Virus record (IMG/VR): IMGVR_UViG_2529292726_000018
Coordinates: 1 to 29,089 of that record
Length of the DNA stretch: 29,089 nucleotides
Origin: a virus
Lineage: Duplodnaviria > Heunggongvirae > Uroviricota > Caudoviricetes
Reading direction: 5' to 3' (one strand)
Made by a program: the position numbers and the translations under genes. Shown one piece after another: positions 10,262-19,051 of this stretch. Position 1 is the stretch's first letter; every line of letters starts with the position of its first letter. A model generated the notes under the pieces. It searched no databases and was not told the origin of the DNA. It saw only the letters and a program-made list of their open reading frames with translations.

Positions 10262-11377
10262 TTAAATCCCTGCTTTTCTGAATACCTGTGCATCACGCTC
10301 ACGGAGTTGCTTCAGCGTCAGCCATTCGCCTTTATCGGTGTAAAATTCATCTGGCGACATACCGCCATCCCGAATCAGCTTTGCCCGGGTTTCCCCCACA
10401 ATCTGTTTTTGTCTGGTGTAAGGCTGACGCAAAAACCATTCCCTGTAGGTTGTATCTCCGGCCACCACGCCATCCATGCTGGCCCGCTCAGCCGGGGAAA
10501 TATCACGAACATCAATACCCAGTTCCTTCGCTGATTTCAGAATGAACGTTTCCGTTGAGCGGCAGCAGAAATGAATTTTTCCCGGCCCATGCAAATAAGG
10601 CACACTGTGACCTACAGGTTTATTATCCAGCGTATATTTGAGGAGATCCCTGATTCGACATTGTGGCGTAGTACGATTATCAAGCGTTGATAACCATTGC
10701 TTACCCTTAATCAAATCATTATTCGCGCTGGCAAAACTCTCACGGGCAGTAGCAGCAAGATGTCCAACCGCTGTTTTTGCAATGCTGGCCGCATTAGCCC
10801 GGCTCATCTGCAATGCACCATCCTGAAATCCCTTGCTGACATGTCCCCGAATTTTTCTTGCGATCTGCTCATTGGTATCCCCCAGCAAAAAACCCTGACG
10901 CACCGTATTTGTTATGCGTCTGAGCCGATCCGCCTCAAGATCCAAGGCCCACTCACTGAGCAGTCGTCCCTGGAATGGTCGCGCCATTGCAGCGGCGTAA
11001 AGTGCATCAGAAGATATACCAACCAGAGGGTGAACATCAGCAACAAAATCAGGTAGCAGAGAATCAAACAGACTTAACTGATAACCAGCCTCATAAATTG
11101 CCAGCTCGTTCAGCTCTCCGGAGAGACTGGTAAACATGCTGTTAATAGCAGCGCGGTTAACCTCTCTGACACTCGCCAGAAGTGACTCCAGGCGCGTAAC
11201 GGTAAAACTACCAGGATCGAGGCTGTCCAGTGCTACCAGCAGGCGAGCTGTAAGCTCCGCATCGCTGTCATTCAGTATTTTCACCATTCTGGCAGCCACA
11301 CCAGTGCTATAGCGGGATATCCAGACTGCATGAGCAATTGATTCATCACGCAGCCGTTCATTCACGGTTTGCATCAT
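10262..11377 (-). CDS. Head morphogenesis protein (Mu gpF / SPP1 gp7-like)
   Basis: 371 aa; overlaps the portal stop. Contains a conserved-looking block LDNRTTPQCR...LHGPGKIHFCCRS typical of Mu F-like proteins. Confidence 0.65.
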   Translation of the reverse strand: MMQTVNERLRDESIAHAVWISRYSTGVAARMVKILNDSDAELTARLLVALDSLDPGSFTVTRLESLLASVREVNRAAINSMFTSLSGELNELAIYEAGYQLSLFDSLLPDFVADVHPLVGISSDALYAAAMARPFQGRLLSEWALDLEADRLRRITNTVRQGFLLGDTNEQIARKIRGHVSKGFQDGALQMSRANAASIAKTAVGHLAATARESFASANNDLIKGKQWLSTLDNRTTPQCRIRDLLKYTLDNKPVGHSVPYLHGPGKIHFCCRSTETFILKSAKELGIDVRDISPAERASMDGVVAGDTTYREWFLRQPYTRQKQIVGETRAKLIRDGGMSPDEFYTDKGEWLTLKQLRERDAQVFRKAGI

Positions 11378-12764
11378 TGATTTCCATCAGCATTACACTC
11401 TGATTTTTTAATTCATCGATCACTTCCTCTGGACGGGAATCCTGATCGATAAATTTCAACGCCTGCAACACCCGAACCGCATCAATCTGACGTATATCAC
11501 CGCCCTGACGCAATGACTGAACAGCCAGCGCGGAGGATGAGTCAAACACCTGGGCAGATACATCCAGTTCAGTGCGCACATCCACATTGCCACCGCAACT
11601 CTCTCCGCTCCATTCCGCCATTATCTGGAGAATATTATCGAGGGCATCTTCGAGGGAGTTCGCCATTGTATAAAGCGGCGAGTGTTCCTGCATCCGCTCT
11701 TCATTAGTCTGATCAACAGATTTGGTGGATGTATTTTCAGCCCGCAGAAGTTTAGCGCCGGCATGACGCATCTGATTTTCCAGCTTCTCAAGTGATGTTT
11801 CGCCAGATTCTATCGCTGCGCCACTATGTTCAACATATTCGAGGCCATTTTTTGTTCTGTCCTCAAAAATCGTAGCGGTGGATGCACCAACCGTCAGTTC
11901 TTCATTCCTGTCCAGCCCGTAGGCCACCAGCAATGGAACGCGGGCAACATGAAGAATATTGTCCTGCTCGCTCTGGCTTTGCCAGTGCTTGATATTCAGC
12001 AAGCCAAGATTAAGCAATGGCGGTGTACCACGCATAAACCCTGTTTTCTTCGTATACAGTGTTACCAGAGGAATATCATCACGGCTGGTATTCCATGACT
12101 CATGAAGCATCCAGACAGATTCGCCATTAGTACCTTCGCTGCGTCGATAAATTTCTACTCGACGGGGCATAATATGGCGGATCTGCTCCACCTTCTTCTG
12201 CCCGAAATCATCACCATCAATAATGATGACCTCTTTTATACGCAAATCAGTGAGAACAACTTTCCCTTTTTCAACTTTCGATTTCCATCCAATAACCTGG
12301 CGTGGATTCAGCATCGTAACGTACGGGCGACCACCGGCCGCGTTTTCATCGGCTTTTGTCCGAATCTCGTTCATATCCGTTCGTGGATAGTCCACCAGCG
12401 CATGTGCCACACCATACTGAAATGCGAGACTGAAAAATTGCTGCGCCCACACATCCAGTCGGCTCCCCTCCATGTCGATATTTTCTGCATATTCCCTGAT
12501 TTTTTCCGGCGTTTCCTCACTCAATACTGTCGGCTCTGCAAATATGCGCCCAATATTTTGTTTGATGCTTTCTTCATACACAGGAAGTAGCGTAGCCACA
12601 GACAGGCGTTTTTTATAAGCGTCTTCATCTTCATTAGGCCATTTGGGGAGATAATTTTCCCCCTGCCTGCGCATTTCAAGCGTACCGCCCATCAATGCGT
12701 CGTTAATATCCCACGCCTCCAGCATATCGTTATAGTCGAGGTTGGGGGTTGATATATCAGCCAT
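11358..12764 (-). CDS. Portal protein
   Basis: 468 aa, immediately downstream of the large terminase gene (2 nt gap) and overlapping the head morphogenesis gene. Confidence 0.75.
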   Translation of the reverse strand: MADISTPNLDYNDMLEAWDINDALMGGTLEMRRQGENYLPKWPNEDEDAYKKRLSVATLLPVYEESIKQNIGRIFAEPTVLSEETPEKIREYAENIDMEGSRLDVWAQQFFSLAFQYGVAHALVDYPRTDMNEIRTKADENAAGGRPYVTMLNPRQVIGWKSKVEKGKVVLTDLRIKEVIIIDGDDFGQKKVEQIRHIMPRRVEIYRRSEGTNGESVWMLHESWNTSRDDIPLVTLYTKKTGFMRGTPPLLNLGLLNIKHWQSQSEQDNILHVARVPLLVAYGLDRNEELTVGASTATIFEDRTKNGLEYVEHSGAAIESGETSLEKLENQMRHAGAKLLRAENTSTKSVDQTNEERMQEHSPLYTMANSLEDALDNILQIMAEWSGESCGGNVDVRTELDVSAQVFDSSSALAVQSLRQGGDIRQIDAVRVLQALKFIDQDSRPEEVIDELKNQSVMLMEINDANRE

Positions 12765-15146: not shown

Positions 15147-15398
15147 TTAGTCCTGATTTTTATCCACCCTGAGTAGTTCGCGCAGAGCAAAGGCATCCCC
15201 TTTTCTGGCAAGCTTAAACAATGCCGCTCGTAACTCGGCTTCACCTTTCGCTCTGCCCTTACGGATGGCCGCATAAAAATCTGTCATTGCTTCCCGATTT
15301 TCTTTCAGTCGGTTCAGATCAACATCCAGAACGTCAGCGATTTGTTGTGCAGTCATCCGGCACGCTGCCAGAGACTCGACTTTCGAATACGGAATCAT
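15147..15398 (-). CDS. Small hypothetical protein with a possible HTH (83 aa or less)
   Basis: MTAQQIADVLDVD is HTH-like. Overlaps the 3' end of the upstream gene; lies between the GT-A-like gene and the small terminase gene. Start codon uncertain (15398 or 15356). Confidence 0.4.
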   Translation of the reverse strand: MIPYSKVESLAACRMTAQQIADVLDVDLNRLKENREAMTDFYAAIRKGRAKGEAELRAALFKLARKGDAFALRELLRVDKNQD

Positions 15399-16266
15399 TT
15401 GTCACCCCCATTGATATGCAGGGTGTCTTCTTCCTGTATTTTTCGTGAAGGATTTTTACTGCAGCGTTGTTCCAGGTGACCTGATGGTGAATGCGTTTAT
15501 GGCTGGCACCCATCAGTGAGATTTTTACGCACGACGGCGCATACATGACGGAGTAAAAACTTTTAACGTAGGTTCCGGAATCCAGATACAGCTCGGTCAT
15601 TCCGCCGCTGTTTTTCTGCGTCTGTTTCTGCCCTAACTGGACAGCACCGATCGTCATAAACAATTCACCACAGCGACCGAGATTCGTGTACGTATTCACA
15701 TCCTCGTTAATGCGCCCCATGAATGAGAACGGTCGATCAACCGAACAGATAAAGCTGTTCATTGCCTTGCGTTTCACCCACGAAGCATGGCCGCCATTGT
15801 CACCAAGAAAATCCCCGCCCTGCGACATAGCGATGGAAAGCGCGGGTATTGATTCGTAATACGCCAGCATTTCAGAAAGGATCGCATCCAGTTTCCTTAT
15901 CGGGAAATAGGCCTGGTCATAGTTGCGATCCACCCGAAACTGGAACTCGTGATAATCATCATCGAGCTGAATGAAGTATTTACACCCGACCAGTTTTGCC
16001 AGGTCGAAACAGGCATTACGGGCGTAAAAAATTGAGCGGCGGTCACCAAAATTATCGGCTTCGTCAAAACGACTGGCAATATCGGCTTTGGAAAATACCA
16101 GCACCTGTTCACCAAATTCAGCCATGTACTGATGCCGTGTCTTATCTTCATCATCAACAACGATAAAAATTTTCCCGGTATAGCCAGCACGACGCAACGT
16201 CCGGTAAGTCAGAACTTTGTCCGGTCGCCCGTGAGTCAGAATAAAGGCGCAAAAATCATCACGCAT
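15334..16266 (-). CDS. Hypothetical protein with GT-A-like (DxD-type) nucleotide-sugar transferase hallmarks
   Basis: 310 aa. ATG at 16266 preceded by a G-rich SD and coupled to the ParB-like stop (ATGCGTGA overlap). N-terminal AFILTHGRPDKVLTYRTLRRAGYTGKIFIVVDDED and later KYFIQLDDDYHEF look like a GT-A Rossmann start and a DxD motif. Fold assignment is by eye only. Confidence 0.55.
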   Translation of the reverse strand: MRDDFCAFILTHGRPDKVLTYRTLRRAGYTGKIFIVVDDEDKTRHQYMAEFGEQVLVFSKADIASRFDEADNFGDRRSIFYARNACFDLAKLVGCKYFIQLDDDYHEFQFRVDRNYDQAYFPIRKLDAILSEMLAYYESIPALSIAMSQGGDFLGDNGGHASWVKRKAMNSFICSVDRPFSFMGRINEDVNTYTNLGRCGELFMTIGAVQLGQKQTQKNSGGMTELYLDSGTYVKSFYSVMYAPSCVKISLMGASHKRIHHQVTWNNAAVKILHEKYRKKTPCISMGVTNDSVFESRVSGSVPDDCTTNR

Positions 16267-17047
16267 ATTCCCCCTCCCCGCTATGCATGATCGCCACCAT
16301 GCGCTGCGTCATTCGGACAAATCCATTTTCAATAGCCTGCTGATAATCAATGATCACCAGCGCCGACTCCTCGAAAAGGCACTGAATTTCAGCGGGGGCA
16401 TGAGCGTAATAGTCCGCAATTCTGCTGAAATTAAACACCGTGTGACGTTCTGCCGCACACAGGAGGAATTTCTCAATATCAGGATCAAGGGACGCCGAAC
16501 GTATCCGGCTGATCAGCTCCTGAGTTTTCGTATCGTCGTACAGTTCACTGATATCCGGTTTACCGCCCGACGGCTCATAAACAGGCGTATCAATTTTCGT
16601 CGTATACGGCTCCTCCTTATTTCCTGTACCGGGCAAAACATCCGTCAACAGTTCATCAATTTCTGTCGGGCCGAAGCCTGTCAGGGAGACATCAAAATCA
16701 GCATTGATTAGGTCCGACAGCTCCATCCGCAATAGATCTTCATCCCAGCCAGCATTCATCGGTAGGCGATTATCTGCCAGGCGGTACGCCTTTTTCTGCT
16801 CATCCGTCAGGCCAGACAGAACAATGACCGGAACAGAATCCATTTTGAGCATTTCAGCCGCCATAACACGACCGTGACCCGCAATAATTTCGCCCTTTTC
16901 GTCAATCAGCACCGGATTAGTCCAGCCGAATTGCTTAATACTTTCTACCAGTTGTGCCACCTGCTCAGTACTGTGCGTCCTGGCGTTGTGCGCATACGGT
17001 GACAATTCTTGTAATGGGCGATAGACTATCTTTAATTTCTCGCTCAT
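16259..17047 (-). CDS. ParB-like N-terminal domain protein (ParB/Srx superfamily; IbrB-like)
   Basis: 262 aa. ARTHSTEQVAQLVESIKQFGWTNPVLIDEKGEIIAGHGRVMAAEMLKMDSVPVIVL matches the ParB N-domain pattern (GxGR, then hydrophobic VPV). SD (GAGG) before ATG 17047. Confidence 0.8.
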   Translation of the reverse strand: MSEKLKIVYRPLQELSPYAHNARTHSTEQVAQLVESIKQFGWTNPVLIDEKGEIIAGHGRVMAAEMLKMDSVPVIVLSGLTDEQKKAYRLADNRLPMNAGWDEDLLRMELSDLINADFDVSLTGFGPTEIDELLTDVLPGTGNKEEPYTTKIDTPVYEPSGGKPDISELYDDTKTQELISRIRSASLDPDIEKFLLCAAERHTVFNFSRIADYYAHAPAEIQCLFEESALVIIDYQQAIENGFVRMTQRMVAIMHSGEGEYA

Positions 17048-17066
17048 ACAGCCTCGCTTTATGAAT

Positions 17067-17159
17067 AAAAAAGCCCGCTATCGGCCAGTGCGCTGGGTGC
17101 GCGGCGGGTGCTGATAACGAGCTTTGACATTATCGCAGCCCCTCACACTGAAGGGCTGC
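17067..17159 (-). terminator. Pair of hairpins (terminator-like) between the acidic small gene and the ParB-like gene
   Basis: Perfect 7 bp stem GCAGCCC/GGGCTGC at 17135-17159 just after the upstream stop. A second GC stem (CCCGC/GCGGG with an inner CCAG/CTGG) is followed on the minus strand by UUUUUUAUU at 17067-17072. Confidence 0.35.
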
Positions 17160-17170
17160 TGTAATGCCTG

Positions 17171-17470
17171 TTACTCAGTAACAACTGCGCCTTCCGGTAA
17201 TTTCATACCGGCAAATACCGGACAACCAGGATGACAATCATCTTCTGTTGCTTCCAGCATTGACTCACCAAACCACTCCGTCGTGGCGCGACCATCAGCT
17301 GCTTTGTAGTGGATCAAGTACTGGTTTTCGCCATCCGCATACTGCGCGCGGGCTTTAACCTCCCCCCATTCATCACTGATGCGCATCTCCACCAGTTGAG
17401 ACAACTCAAACTTAAACGGAGCAGCATCAGCACCAATTACAATCGGTTTGTTTTTTGTTTTTTCCATCAT
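17171..17470 (-). CDS. Small acidic hypothetical protein (about 99 aa)
   Basis: ATG ATG at 17470/17467 with SD AGGAG. MMEKTKNKPIVIGADAAPFKFELSQLVEMRISDEWGE...; net acidic. Flanked by hairpins on both sides, which suggests an autonomous accessory gene. Confidence 0.55.
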   Translation of the reverse strand: MMEKTKNKPIVIGADAAPFKFELSQLVEMRISDEWGEVKARAQYADGENQYLIHYKAADGRATTEWFGESMLEATEDDCHPGCPVFAGMKLPEGAVVTE

Positions 17471-17605
17471 CGTCTCCTGATATCGAAGCCCGCCGCCGCA
17501 CCGGGCGCTGATCAACATTTGAGTATTCGCAGCGAAAGAAAGAATTTATTTTATTGAGTAGCCACAAACACAGAATTTCGTGCTTTCCAGACGATGGCGC
17601 ATCCT

Positions 17606-17824
17606 TCATTTTTCAGCAAAATATTCTGCTCTTACAGGCGATAAGTTCTGCAGACACTGCCGAACACCGTCAACAATTTCGCAGACCTGAGAAGCCGTAT
17701 CGAAAAGCTGGCGCGCCTTATCCAGGCTAACGCATCCCACCAGGAAAAAAGGCACCAGTATCGCTACCAGTGCCCATTTCGCCGCCGTTCGCGGCATTCT
17801 GTGTGTCCAGTGTTTTCTGCTCAT
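17606..17824 (-). CDS. Small lipoprotein, possible spanin component
   Basis: 72 aa from ATG 17824 (SD AGGTG). Signal peptide with lipobox LVGC (…WALVAILVPFFLVGC). Overlaps the endolysin 3' end, as spanin genes often do. Confidence 0.45.
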   Translation of the reverse strand: MSRKHWTHRMPRTAAKWALVAILVPFFLVGCVSLDKARQLFDTASQVCEIVDGVRQCLQNLSPVRAEYFAEK

Positions 17825-17838
17825 AACACACCTGGTTA

Positions 17839-18222
17839 TCAGCGTTTCAACTGAAAGTGAGGCCCGTCTTTCAGTGTTTTCCAGTCCCCGCCCCATTCGA
17901 TGGCAGTTCCCAGCTCTGCGGCAGCCTTCTTAAATGCCTGCGCGATTTTCTCGTACAGAGGCCAGTCCCATGACACCTGGCTGCCAACCCAGGCAACAAC
18001 ATCCACCGCATCACCGGTCAGGTGGCGGCTGTTCATGGTCTGGCTTTTCCCTTCCGCGACCAGCTGTTTCTGGCGTTCTTTCGTGCGCAGCCCTTCCGTA
18101 ATACCGAAATCAACCTCCGTCAGCTCCAGCGCACGGCGAACGACAGCAACCAGCTGTGGTTTAACGCCCTCCAGATTTTTTTCACTGCGACGGCTGAATC
18201 TGAATTTACCCGACATATTCAC
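17839..18222 (-). CDS. Endolysin, peptidase M15 family (L-alanyl-D-glutamate peptidase, T5-endolysin-like)
   Basis: 127 aa. SEKNLEGVKPQL, RRALEL, SRHLTGDAVD and GGDW parallel the T5 endolysin / VanY-type zinc-peptidase motifs as recalled. Confidence 0.85.
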   Translation of the reverse strand: MNMSGKFRFSRRSEKNLEGVKPQLVAVVRRALELTEVDFGITEGLRTKERQKQLVAEGKSQTMNSRHLTGDAVDVVAWVGSQVSWDWPLYEKIAQAFKKAAAELGTAIEWGGDWKTLKDGPHFQLKR

Positions 18223-18494
18223 CTCAACAATGGAAAGATTTTTGTGACGTTCCCGCGTGCGCGTATCACCAGCACGCAGAACAGCAGGTTAAAAAACACT
18301 TCCAGCCAGCCCGTTGCTAACGGGCGACCACACAGATAGCTGAGGGGCGCAAAGGCATACAGCAGCATCAGCAGCCACGCCAGCCATGACATCAGCGGTT
18401 TATGTCTGGAATCACGGCGACGATAAAAAAAGAGCGTCAGCACGATAACCGTGCATAACGCTACATTCAGCAATCCGGGAAGGTTACTTAACAT
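18219..18494 (-). CDS. Small membrane protein (holin or antiholin-like), 91 aa
   Basis: ATG at 18494 with SD GGAGG. Three predicted transmembrane segments; directly upstream of the endolysin and overlapping its start. Confidence 0.5.
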   Translation of the reverse strand: MLSNLPGLLNVALCTVIVLTLFFYRRRDSRHKPLMSWLAWLLMLLYAFAPLSYLCGRPLATGWLEVFFNLLFCVLVIRARGNVTKIFPLLR

Positions 18495-18876
18495 TGCCGC
18501 CTCCTCCACCCCGCAGACGGGAGAACAGGCCGGACACCAGTGATGCAATATCCTGCTGGTGGATGAACGAGAGAATCTTCACCGACACCACTGACACCAG
18601 CACTGCACACAGTGCGTCGACAGGCGCACCGTCAAACCCTGTATGCTTTACCAGCCAGGATGCCAGAACCTCTGCGCCCAGCACGCCGATAATGAACGAC
18701 ACCAGAAAATGCGCCGCCACACGCCAGGCTGAAAGCGCCTGCGGCATCGTTGCCACAAATAACGCCCCGGCGAACGCACCAAACACAATCCCGAAATCCG
18801 TTCCGGTAAACAGCCCGAATACCGTCGCCCCGCCGAGCGCCACAGCCGTACCGGAACCGGATAAGGGTTCAGACAT
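18484..18876 (-). CDS. Membrane protein (putative holin), 130 aa
   Basis: ATG at 18876 with SD GGGAGG (MSEPLSGSGTAVALGG...). Gly/Ala-rich transmembrane helices; first gene of the lysis cassette. The 186 aa track ORF is an upstream extension. Confidence 0.45.
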   Translation of the reverse strand: MSEPLSGSGTAVALGGATVFGLFTGTDFGIVFGAFAGALFVATMPQALSAWRVAAHFLVSFIIGVLGAEVLASWLVKHTGFDGAPVDALCAVLVSVVSVKILSFIHQQDIASLVSGLFSRLRGGGGGNVK

Positions 18877-18894
18877 GCTTTTTCCTCCCACAAA

Positions 18895-18917
18895 TAAAAA
18901 AGGGCCTCCAGCGGCCC
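18895..18917 (-). terminator. Intrinsic terminator-like hairpin between the AraC-family gene and the lysis cassette
   Basis: Minus-strand RNA forms GGGCC-(6 nt)-GGCCC followed by UUUUUUAUUUG. Further GC-rich hairpins lie at 18965-19020. Confidence 0.5.
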
Positions 18918-19051
18918 GTAAAAACACCCTGTCAAAGGCACCCGCAGATGCCTTTTGTGTGGTGTTATCTGATGTGATGTGCGCCGGGCGCGGCGCGGAT
19001 ATGAAAAAGGCCCGCCGCAGCGAGCCTGTTTTCAATGAGTGCAAAATTCAA

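Follow-up and report, generated by a model that had tools for sequence, protein, structure and literature searches.

The 29,089-nucleotide stretch of viral DNA analysed here (Caudoviricetes; IMG/VR record IMGVR_UViG_2529292726_000018; hereafter the window) carries on its minus strand, at 17171–17467, a gene for a 98-residue protein. We hold with high confidence that the gene is optional cargo, placed at a mosaic joint in the slot that separates the lysis cassette from the packaging module. That the gene is real and that its product adopts an SH3-type barrel leaves similarly little room for doubt. The closest known relative of this barrel is the host heat-shock protein HspQ (YccV). The overall reading that we favour, in which the gene is optional late-operon cargo encoding an HspQ-like docking barrel, seems to us about evenly poised between right and wrong. 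It is an ordinary-looking, well-delimited hypothetical accessory gene with a plausible, putative function.

An optional gene between the lysis and packaging modules

Two hairpins lie downstream of the gene (hairpins 1 and 2), each within a different stretch of homology to other phages. Homology to the Stx2e phage phiP27 (96.9% identity) begins exactly at 17128, where hairpin 1 starts, and continues through the gene into the lysis cassette; the phiP27 counterpart, L33 (P27p33), is annotated 'hypothetical'. Homology to the ParB/terminase module of the 666R9 group and SPF_0923 includes hairpin 2 and stops at 17097–17117. The Stx2e prophage STEC346 has the same lysis cassette, but in it the lipoprotein stop codon is followed directly by hairpin 1, and exactly 469 nucleotides are missing. 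The preliminary description had presented the gene as an autonomously inserted accessory gene. Its optional nature is borne out by the 469-nucleotide gap, but its autonomy is not, as no sigma-70-like promoter was found and the hairpins downstream belong elsewhere (see below). The features concerned are as follows.

17171–17467, minus strand: coding sequence of the gene (open reading frame (ORF) list; phrog_1935, E 8e-60; 103 homologues; RefSeq WP_001405089.1)
17473–17478, minus strand: ribosome-binding site AGGAGA, read from the sequence, 5 nucleotides 5' of the ATG at 17467
17172–17640, minus strand: presence/absence cassette of 469 nucleotides (upstream leader and ORF), from the three-way alignment of the window, STEC346 and phiP27
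17118–17127, no strand: mosaic joint where the phiP27-type lysis/cargo module meets the ParB/terminase module, from the homology limits
17128–17166, minus strand: hairpin 1 (free energy -29 kcal/mol, z -5.5, 0 of 200 shuffles as good)
17064–17125, minus strand: hairpin 2 (stem-loop about 17070–17125; free energy -25.1 kcal/mol, z -3.3)
17488–17506, minus strand: upstream GC hairpin, GCCCG-9 nucleotides-CGGGC, with a 5-bp stem, abutting the ribosome-binding site

In 666R9 this slot is taken by trkG; in cdtI, pPE4 and DLP12-type prophages it contains KilA-N-like or other small genes. In the K-12 Rac prophage, too, trkG occupies the slot, and bor of lambda is likewise cargo of the lysis-to-packaging slot. 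Several of the alternative cargo genes (as in cdtI and pPE4) end in a relic made up of the last ~60 nucleotides of the gene and hairpin 1, in another frame. The cdtI orf60 was considered as a homologue and rejected, because it shares just these ~60 nucleotides and the hairpin, in a different frame. A 98-residue ORF beside the hairpin in STEC346 was likewise rejected as a diverged homologue (BLASTP E 9.5). Unrelated ORFs of 98–106 residues (MSERNYEAIGRC...) lie between hairpin 1 and an HNH endonuclease gene in STEC346 (locus L198, 2165–2461) and in loci L014 and L038.

Among 5,426 complete E. coli genomes, 298 match the region; 138 of these hold most of it and the rest mostly the relic only, and a gene of this type is present in about 2.5–5% of the genomes. 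The 63-residue lipoprotein of the lysis cassette is the upstream neighbour in 65 related loci. Downstream partners vary: the lambda-type cos/Nu1/A module comes next in 38 loci, and the remaining loci have ParB, HNH, terminase or other genes there. At locus L042 (4950–5393) and about 26 similar loci, a common variant of 130 residues, or 147 from an upstream ATG, sits immediately 5' of the lambda-type cos/Nu1/A module; it carries a 35-residue C-terminal extension past LPEGAV (...ELQPGEVFVMTDIIDGKPQYSRIEMNSKSARLIRE), ahead of hairpin 1. Over the 491 nucleotides tested (17120–17610), the window and a Rac-like prophage of E. coli EC11 agree at every position (100% identity); racR, ydaS and ydaT are present in that prophage.

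The coding sequence and its start

The longest reading frame at this position, 17171–17518 on the minus strand, would encode 115 residues. The ATG at 17467 is the supported start and yields the 98-residue product (MEKTKNKP...AVVTE; coordinates include the stop codon). It is preceded, 5 nucleotides upstream, by the ribosome-binding site, and the context (A/T)GGAGA(C/T)GAT(G/A)ATG is kept across loci even where the upstream gene differs. The same start is shared with the majority of homologues and with RefSeq WP_001405089.1, and at locus L075 its equivalent is the sole ATG present. The start at 17518 was therefore rejected: the ribosome-binding site, the homologue lengths and L075 all favour 17467.

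The gene is under purifying selection (median dN/dS 0.18, 28 pairs). All of its neighbours lie, like the gene itself, on the minus strand, and its GC content (0.481) compares with 0.476 for the window and 0.497–0.509 for the adjacent genes. A small acidic protein between the lysis cassette and a ParB-like gene, as the preliminary description had it, is thus encoded here, although its acidity is mild (isoelectric point 4.68; 18 D/E against 10 K/R; net charge -8).

A conserved hairpin marks the joint

Hairpin 1 begins 5 nucleotides past the stop codon and has arms of ~18 nucleotides (a stem of about 18–20 bp) with a 2x2 internal loop; in the window it lacks a U-run. We compared it across 80 IMG/VR prophage loci and the window. 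It is present in 81 of the 81, in 20 sequence variants every one of which folds, and in 78 of the loci its start lies 4–8 nucleotides past the stop codon. Directly past its end ('...ATAATG') the loci continue in at least 12 unrelated sequences. Pairing is kept in 88.8% of cells, compared with at most 59% in slid controls, and four pairs are altered on both sides. This covariation is modest and supports a selected stem. A U-run follows the hairpin in only two of the loci and is absent from the other 79. Because it lacks a U-run and stays behind in the empty site of STEC346, hairpin 1 is a backbone element and not part of the gene. It is conserved and marks the joint at which cargo genes are exchanged, and offers a clear case of a conserved stem-loop at a module boundary that informs how lambdoid mosaics form. 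It might act as a weak terminator, be processed, or stabilise the 3' end of the transcript. A related hairpin, followed by UUUUUCG, stands after the homologue in P2-like Enterobacter prophages. An Rfam search around the hairpins returned no family.

Hairpin 2 consists of a stem with a 30-nucleotide loop, followed by U6AUU (UUUUUUAUU at 17064–17072). A diverged, partly conserved equivalent stands between trkG and ParB in 666R9. As hairpin 2 lies within the ParB-module homology and is also found after trkG in 666R9, we assign it, with its U-run, to the ParB module, as a terminator-like leader. A consensus scan of the minus strand across 17050–17605 called no terminator or promoter; hairpin 2 escaped it because its loop exceeds the 8-nucleotide limit of the scan. 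Two downstream hairpins, one with a U-run, had already been noted in the preliminary description, and both prove stable beyond chance, the U-run being that of hairpin 2.

The upstream GC hairpin had been noted too. Its sequence is there, a weak stem followed by UUCGAUAU, but its folding is not above that of shuffled sequence (z -0.10, 88 of 200 shuffles as good). Its position is nonetheless that of a terminator in other phages: eight related loci (L064/L075 type) have the canonical terminator AGCCCCGcaaatGCGGGGCTTTTTTATAT there, abutting the same ribosome-binding site, and locus L033 retains the hairpin despite an intergenic deletion. The upstream neighbour in these eight loci is an unrelated 81-residue ORF (MSPGTQKEK...; L064 4693–4938, and L075), with the terminator directly abutting the ribosome-binding site of our gene; this ORF adds another small cargo gene to the slot.

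Probable expression from the late transcript

A scan for sigma-70 consensus sites only, with a threshold of 9 of 12 consensus matches, found no promoter on the minus strand in 17468–17640. The terminator or hairpin directly abuts the ribosome-binding site, so that there is no space for a promoter between them. Homologues in other lineages are embedded in late genes. In P2-like Enterobacter prophages the homologue stands after the DUF2514 spanin gene and before gpR, with a stop/start overlap; an HP1/P2-like Yersinia prophage has it between gpM and gpL, among overlapping late genes; and in Salmonella lambdoid prophages it follows Rz and overlaps adjacent late genes. The start/stop overlaps involve DUF2514, gpM and a downstream ORF. 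As these homologues are translationally coupled to late genes, expression by read-through of the late transcript is probable. From this anatomy we think it likely that the gene is expressed from a Q-antiterminated late transcript and has no promoter of its own. Read-through would have to cross the hairpin that abuts the ribosome-binding site, which is weak in the window and strong in other phages. The downstream hairpins would act as transcript punctuation of the flanking modules: hairpin 1 would close the lysis/cargo module and serve as a recurrent recombination joint, and hairpin 2 would lead the ParB module rather than serve the gene. One point tells against dependence on the late transcript, namely that a weak or atypical promoter may lie in the AT-rich leader.

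Such a promoter is central to the alternative that the 469-nucleotide cassette is a classical moron, expressed in the lysogen from its own promoter, ended at hairpin 1 or 2 and of benefit to the lysogen. The presence/absence polymorphism of the cassette, the two stable hairpins downstream and the 139-nucleotide AT-rich leader, with a TAAAAT hexamer upstream of the gene, all agree with this, as does the presence in the slot of known lysogen-expressed cargo, trkG in 666R9 and likewise trkG in K-12 Rac and bor in lambda. However, no promoter reaches 9 of 12 consensus matches, and the best -35 element for the TAAAAT hexamer, judged by eye, matches at 2 of 6 positions. The leader is separated from the ribosome-binding site by the hairpin (in eight loci by a canonical terminator), the GC content is 48.1% against 47.6% for the window, homologues elsewhere are leaderless and overlap late genes, and hairpin 1 lacks a U-run and is retained in the empty site. 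We consider a moron of this kind improbable. The promoter-plus-terminator signature on which the preliminary description had relied is not supported, on the same grounds: no sigma-70-like site was found, hairpin 1 is part of the backbone and hairpin 2 of the ParB module, base composition is like that of the neighbours, and homologues overlap late genes.

The genomic setting also bears on a role as an accessory of the lysis cassette, in which the protein, in the cytoplasm, would adjust the timing of lysis or the function of spanin or endolysin. The gene directly follows the last lysis gene in three types of cassette: M15 endolysin with lipoprotein (65 loci), M15 endolysin with DUF2514, where stop and start overlap, and endolysin with Rz PF03245 (a Phage_lysozyme endolysin in L101; no Pfam match in L100). 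Yet STEC346 has the same lysis cassette and lacks the gene, the Yersinia homologue sits between gpM and gpL, away from the holin, and distant relatives adjoin replication, integration and packaging genes. The protein itself has neither a transmembrane segment (maximum Kyte-Doolittle hydropathy over 19 residues 0.9; grand average of hydropathy -0.44) nor a lipobox, and resembles no lysis-category PHROG. A lysis accessory is thus rather unlikely. Homology to a lysis or virion protein, which the preliminary description had set against its own proposal, was found in none of the searches of Pfam, PHROG and NCBIfam.

A widespread family with an SH3-type barrel

The protein belongs to phrog_1935/8618 (phrog_1935, E 8e-60), a family with no assigned function. 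There are 103 close homologues, and an exhaustive profile search gathered 724 cluster representatives that share a core of ~58 residues, FKFxLGQxV..SxExG.V.(A/G)RAEY...EN.YL..YKAADGRA...W(W/F).ES.L; a profile search of genome contigs with a smaller alignment returned 13 loci. The core corresponds to the SH3-type barrel, at about residues 17–74, and often occurs as a stand-alone protein of 60 residues. The tail that follows it, HPGCPVFAGxxLPEGAVVxE (HPGCPV...LPEGA), is found in Enterobacteriaceae only. The family extends across Alpha-, Beta- and Gammaproteobacteria, and one metagenome-assembled genome of the Acidobacteriota also has a relative.

No recognised motif had been reported in the preliminary description, and scans of the protein against Pfam (E up to 0.1), NCBIfam and PADLOC agree, giving no match. 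A sequence-profile search of the PDB returned nothing at E up to 10, a Foldseek search of BFVD matched uncharacterised proteins only, and the cluster tables hold no informative names among the homologues. Multi-domain relatives have no informative partner domain (one Lcl_C; the others match only unknown-function PHROGs). We found no literature on phiP27 L33, P27p33, WP_001405089 or phrog_1935.

Prediction with AlphaFold2 from a 110-sequence alignment gave a six-strand SH3-type barrel at a predicted local distance difference test score (pLDDT) of 89.3, with all five models at 85–89. The barrel fits the description of the YccV-like domain, an SH3-like barrel of about six strands, the last of which is preceded by a short 3-10 helix (PMC7647994). 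With two methods and two models, HspQ comes out as the best match in structure. In a Foldseek search with the second model, the HspQ structure 5ycq was again at the top (E 2.3e-3, template-modelling score 0.71), with the next match 26-fold worse. The comparison by hhalign of a diverse family profile with an HspQ profile gave, across 75 columns and in the same register, a probability of 82.9% with a pairwise E of 9e-6; with a single HspQ sequence the probability was 54%. The aligned landmarks (our protein/HspQ) are KFxhGQxV, G35/G21, Y50/Y52, W65/Y67, E68/E70 and L71/L73, and the alignment stops at HPGCP against HPEQP.

Several results weigh against kinship with HspQ or a shared role. The HspQ profile is shallow (orthologues at least 77% identical), so that the 83% figure is not robust, and a shallow enterobacterial profile of our family scored 1.9% against it. 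The protein has no YccV-like match in Pfam, and only one of 78 diverse relatives matches PF08755 (E 0.11). The tail (...VFAGMKLPEGAVVTE) is unrelated to that of HspQ (...TIRKQLQAPRLRN), and the Lon-activating C-terminal sequence is not conserved. The 60-residue relatives are tail-less, and most distant relatives end right past the barrel. Finally, 70 distant viral loci show heterogeneous neighbours, with no conserved neighbourhood or pathway. Other Pfam matches among the 78 relatives are scattered and below threshold, among them two to Tudor-knot (best E 0.031) and one to KOWx_SPT5 (E 0.0032). On balance, we lean moderately towards homology of the protein with YccV/HspQ. YccV/HspQ is the closest known relative and probably homologous, which stops short of demonstrated membership of the protein in PF08755.

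This fold also bears on the suggestion, made in the preliminary description, that the protein is a DNA mimic or an anti-restriction protein of the Ocr or ArdA type. A small, acidic product (isoelectric point 4.7) of an optional phage accessory gene is what such a protein would look like. The structure prediction that the preliminary description had called for gave, instead, a barrel closest to HspQ, and no known mimic is found among the fold neighbours or sequence matches. The charge density is modest (-8 per 98 residues) and is not conserved: the family median net charge is -3, with a range from -20 to +14, 33 of the 78 diverse relatives have a net charge of -2 or higher, and some are basic, with isoelectric points up to 10.3. 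The acidic positions conserved in more than 75% of members are E33, D58 and E68 only. Late-operon expression would, moreover, be mistimed for guarding incoming DNA. A mimic is therefore very improbable.

A nucleic-acid-binding helper, whose barrel would bind DNA near cos or replicated phage DNA and aid packaging or the control of replication, may be considered on the strength of the many SH3-type neighbours (KOW, PWWP, Tudor) that bind nucleic acids. YccV was originally described as a binder of hemimethylated DNA, and the gene is often the last ORF ahead of cos or the small terminase gene. Against this stand the net charge of -8, with R40 the sole conserved basic residue, the loss of terminase adjacency in distant relatives, and the dispensability of the gene in STEC346-type phages that have the same P27-family terminase and HNH genes. 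We regard this role as quite improbable.

A possible link to host proteolysis

The characterised YccV-like domains dock on AAA+ protease systems, namely HspQ on Lon and ClpS, ClpF on ClpS1 and PDIP38 on the zinc-binding domain of CLPX (PMC7647994, PMC6719616, PMC10665427). HspQ, a host heat-shock protein, activates Lon and, when acetylated, inhibits ClpS; a passage in PMC10665427 that cites Puri and Karzai 2017 ascribes the binding and activation of Lon to its C-terminal sequence. Because every characterised YccV-like barrel serves AAA+ protease systems, our guess for the present protein also points to such a system. A soluble, cytoplasmic protein of 98 residues, made late, would most probably act by docking through its barrel onto another protein; its target late in infection might be an AAA+ protease of the host, or an adaptor, whose activity it would modulate. 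By analogy with these domains, a protease-system target is a tentative proposal, on the doubtful side.

A broader hypothesis is that the family is one of minimal HspQ mimics encoded by phages, mostly of Proteobacteria, in which a late barrel of ~58 residues reprograms host proteolysis through Lon, ClpS or ClpX, and in which the cassette moves between late-operon slots with the hairpin as recombination joint. As an example, labile antitoxins or phage proteins might be stabilised and abortive-infection triggers thereby blocked. Taken as a whole, this is unlikely. If the link to HspQ and the protease target were true, they would give a function to a large phage family (phrog_1935/8618, 724 cluster representatives), add a structurally distinct new class to the few phage modulators of host AAA+ proteases, and provide links to toxin-antitoxin and abortive-infection biology.

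Neighbouring genes and other features of the window

The genes on either side, those of the lysis cassette and the first of the ParB/terminase module, are listed here.

18484–19044, minus strand: holin_8, lysis cassette
18219–18548, minus strand: holin_3_7, lysis cassette
17839–18222, minus strand: M15_4 endolysin, lysis cassette
17606–17797, minus strand: lipoprotein of 63 residues (phrog_7528) with an LVGC lipobox, whose gene ends the lysis cassette
16259–17047, minus strand: ynaK-like protein with a ParB_N domain, whose gene opens the downstream module

The ancestral lipoprotein stop codon at 17642–17644, TGA in phiP27 and STEC346, reads TTA in the window, which lengthens the lipoprotein ORF by 12 codons into the leader of the cassette. 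No i-spanin partner is recognisable beside the 63-residue lipoprotein in the lysis cassette.

The ParB_N protein (16259–17047) is similar to phage DNA methyltransferases in their N-terminal portion (phrog_498; PADLOC MTase_II, E 1e-38) and is without a methylase domain. The EC11 copy of ynaK is a partial pseudogene in RefSeq, and the ORF in the window is intact, at 262 residues. Two ORFs without assigned function lie 3' of the ParB_N gene, followed by the small and large terminase genes. These two, of 310 residues (15334–16266, minus strand) and 83 residues (15147–15398, minus strand), stand between ParB and the small terminase gene and are conserved along with the ParB/terminase module in several phages; NCBIfam gives no match for either. 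Beside the large terminase gene, an ORF (L095 6161–7597; about 11358–12764 in the window) bears the RefSeq name 'anti-CBASS protein Acb1 family protein' and stands in the position of the portal gene.

Between the Q-antiterminator region and the holins, where phiP27 has stx2e, lies a gene for an AraC-family, YdeO/GadX-like regulator (19052–19948, minus strand; GC 41.7% against 47.6%), followed by a terminator-like hairpin at 19008–19027. This gene looks like lysogenic-conversion cargo. Rfam detects sok antitoxin RNA (RF01794, 101 bits) at 22073–22243 on the minus strand, and RefSeq annotates a Hok/Gef toxin gene near it in the prophage, so that the two make up a hok/sok module.

Comparison with known systems

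With T7 Gp4.5 and T4 PinA, which act on Lon, and lambda RexB, which acts on ClpP (PMC10286901), the protein shares its standing as a small phage accessory protein. Binding to the proteolytic machinery is experimentally supported for these three; for the present protein it is proposed by analogy. It is to the barrel, and not to these modulators, that the analogy refers: we know of no sequence or structural relationship of the protein to Gp4.5, PinA or RexB.

Generic SH3-like barrels (KOW of NusG/Spt5, Tudor, chromo, PWWP, eL27) score below HspQ with negligible profile evidence, and for the most part occur within larger proteins that bind nucleic acids or histones. HspQ/YccV (PF08755; PDB 5YCQ) is, like the present protein, small, acidic and cytoplasmic. 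Both have a six-strand SH3-type barrel whose last core strand is preceded by a short 3-10 turn. They also share KFxhGQxV at the beginning and, at strand 5, Y/W-h-x-E-x-x-L, after which come an acidic stretch and 'HP'. The phage protein has no counterpart of the ~16 residues inserted between HspQ strands 2 and 3, nor of the C-terminal helix that holds the Lon-binding sequence of HspQ, and the invariant S-x-E-x-G loop is specific to its family. It is encoded by a phage in a late operon, whereas HspQ is the product of a chromosomal heat-shock gene.

Among moron and cargo genes, of which trkG and bor are examples, the gene stands out in having no detectable promoter and a base composition like that of its neighbours; it is co-oriented with the late operon, on which it probably depends, and the hairpins downstream are those of the flanking modules. 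What it has in common with them is the slot itself, presence or absence among related phages, and stable flanking hairpins.

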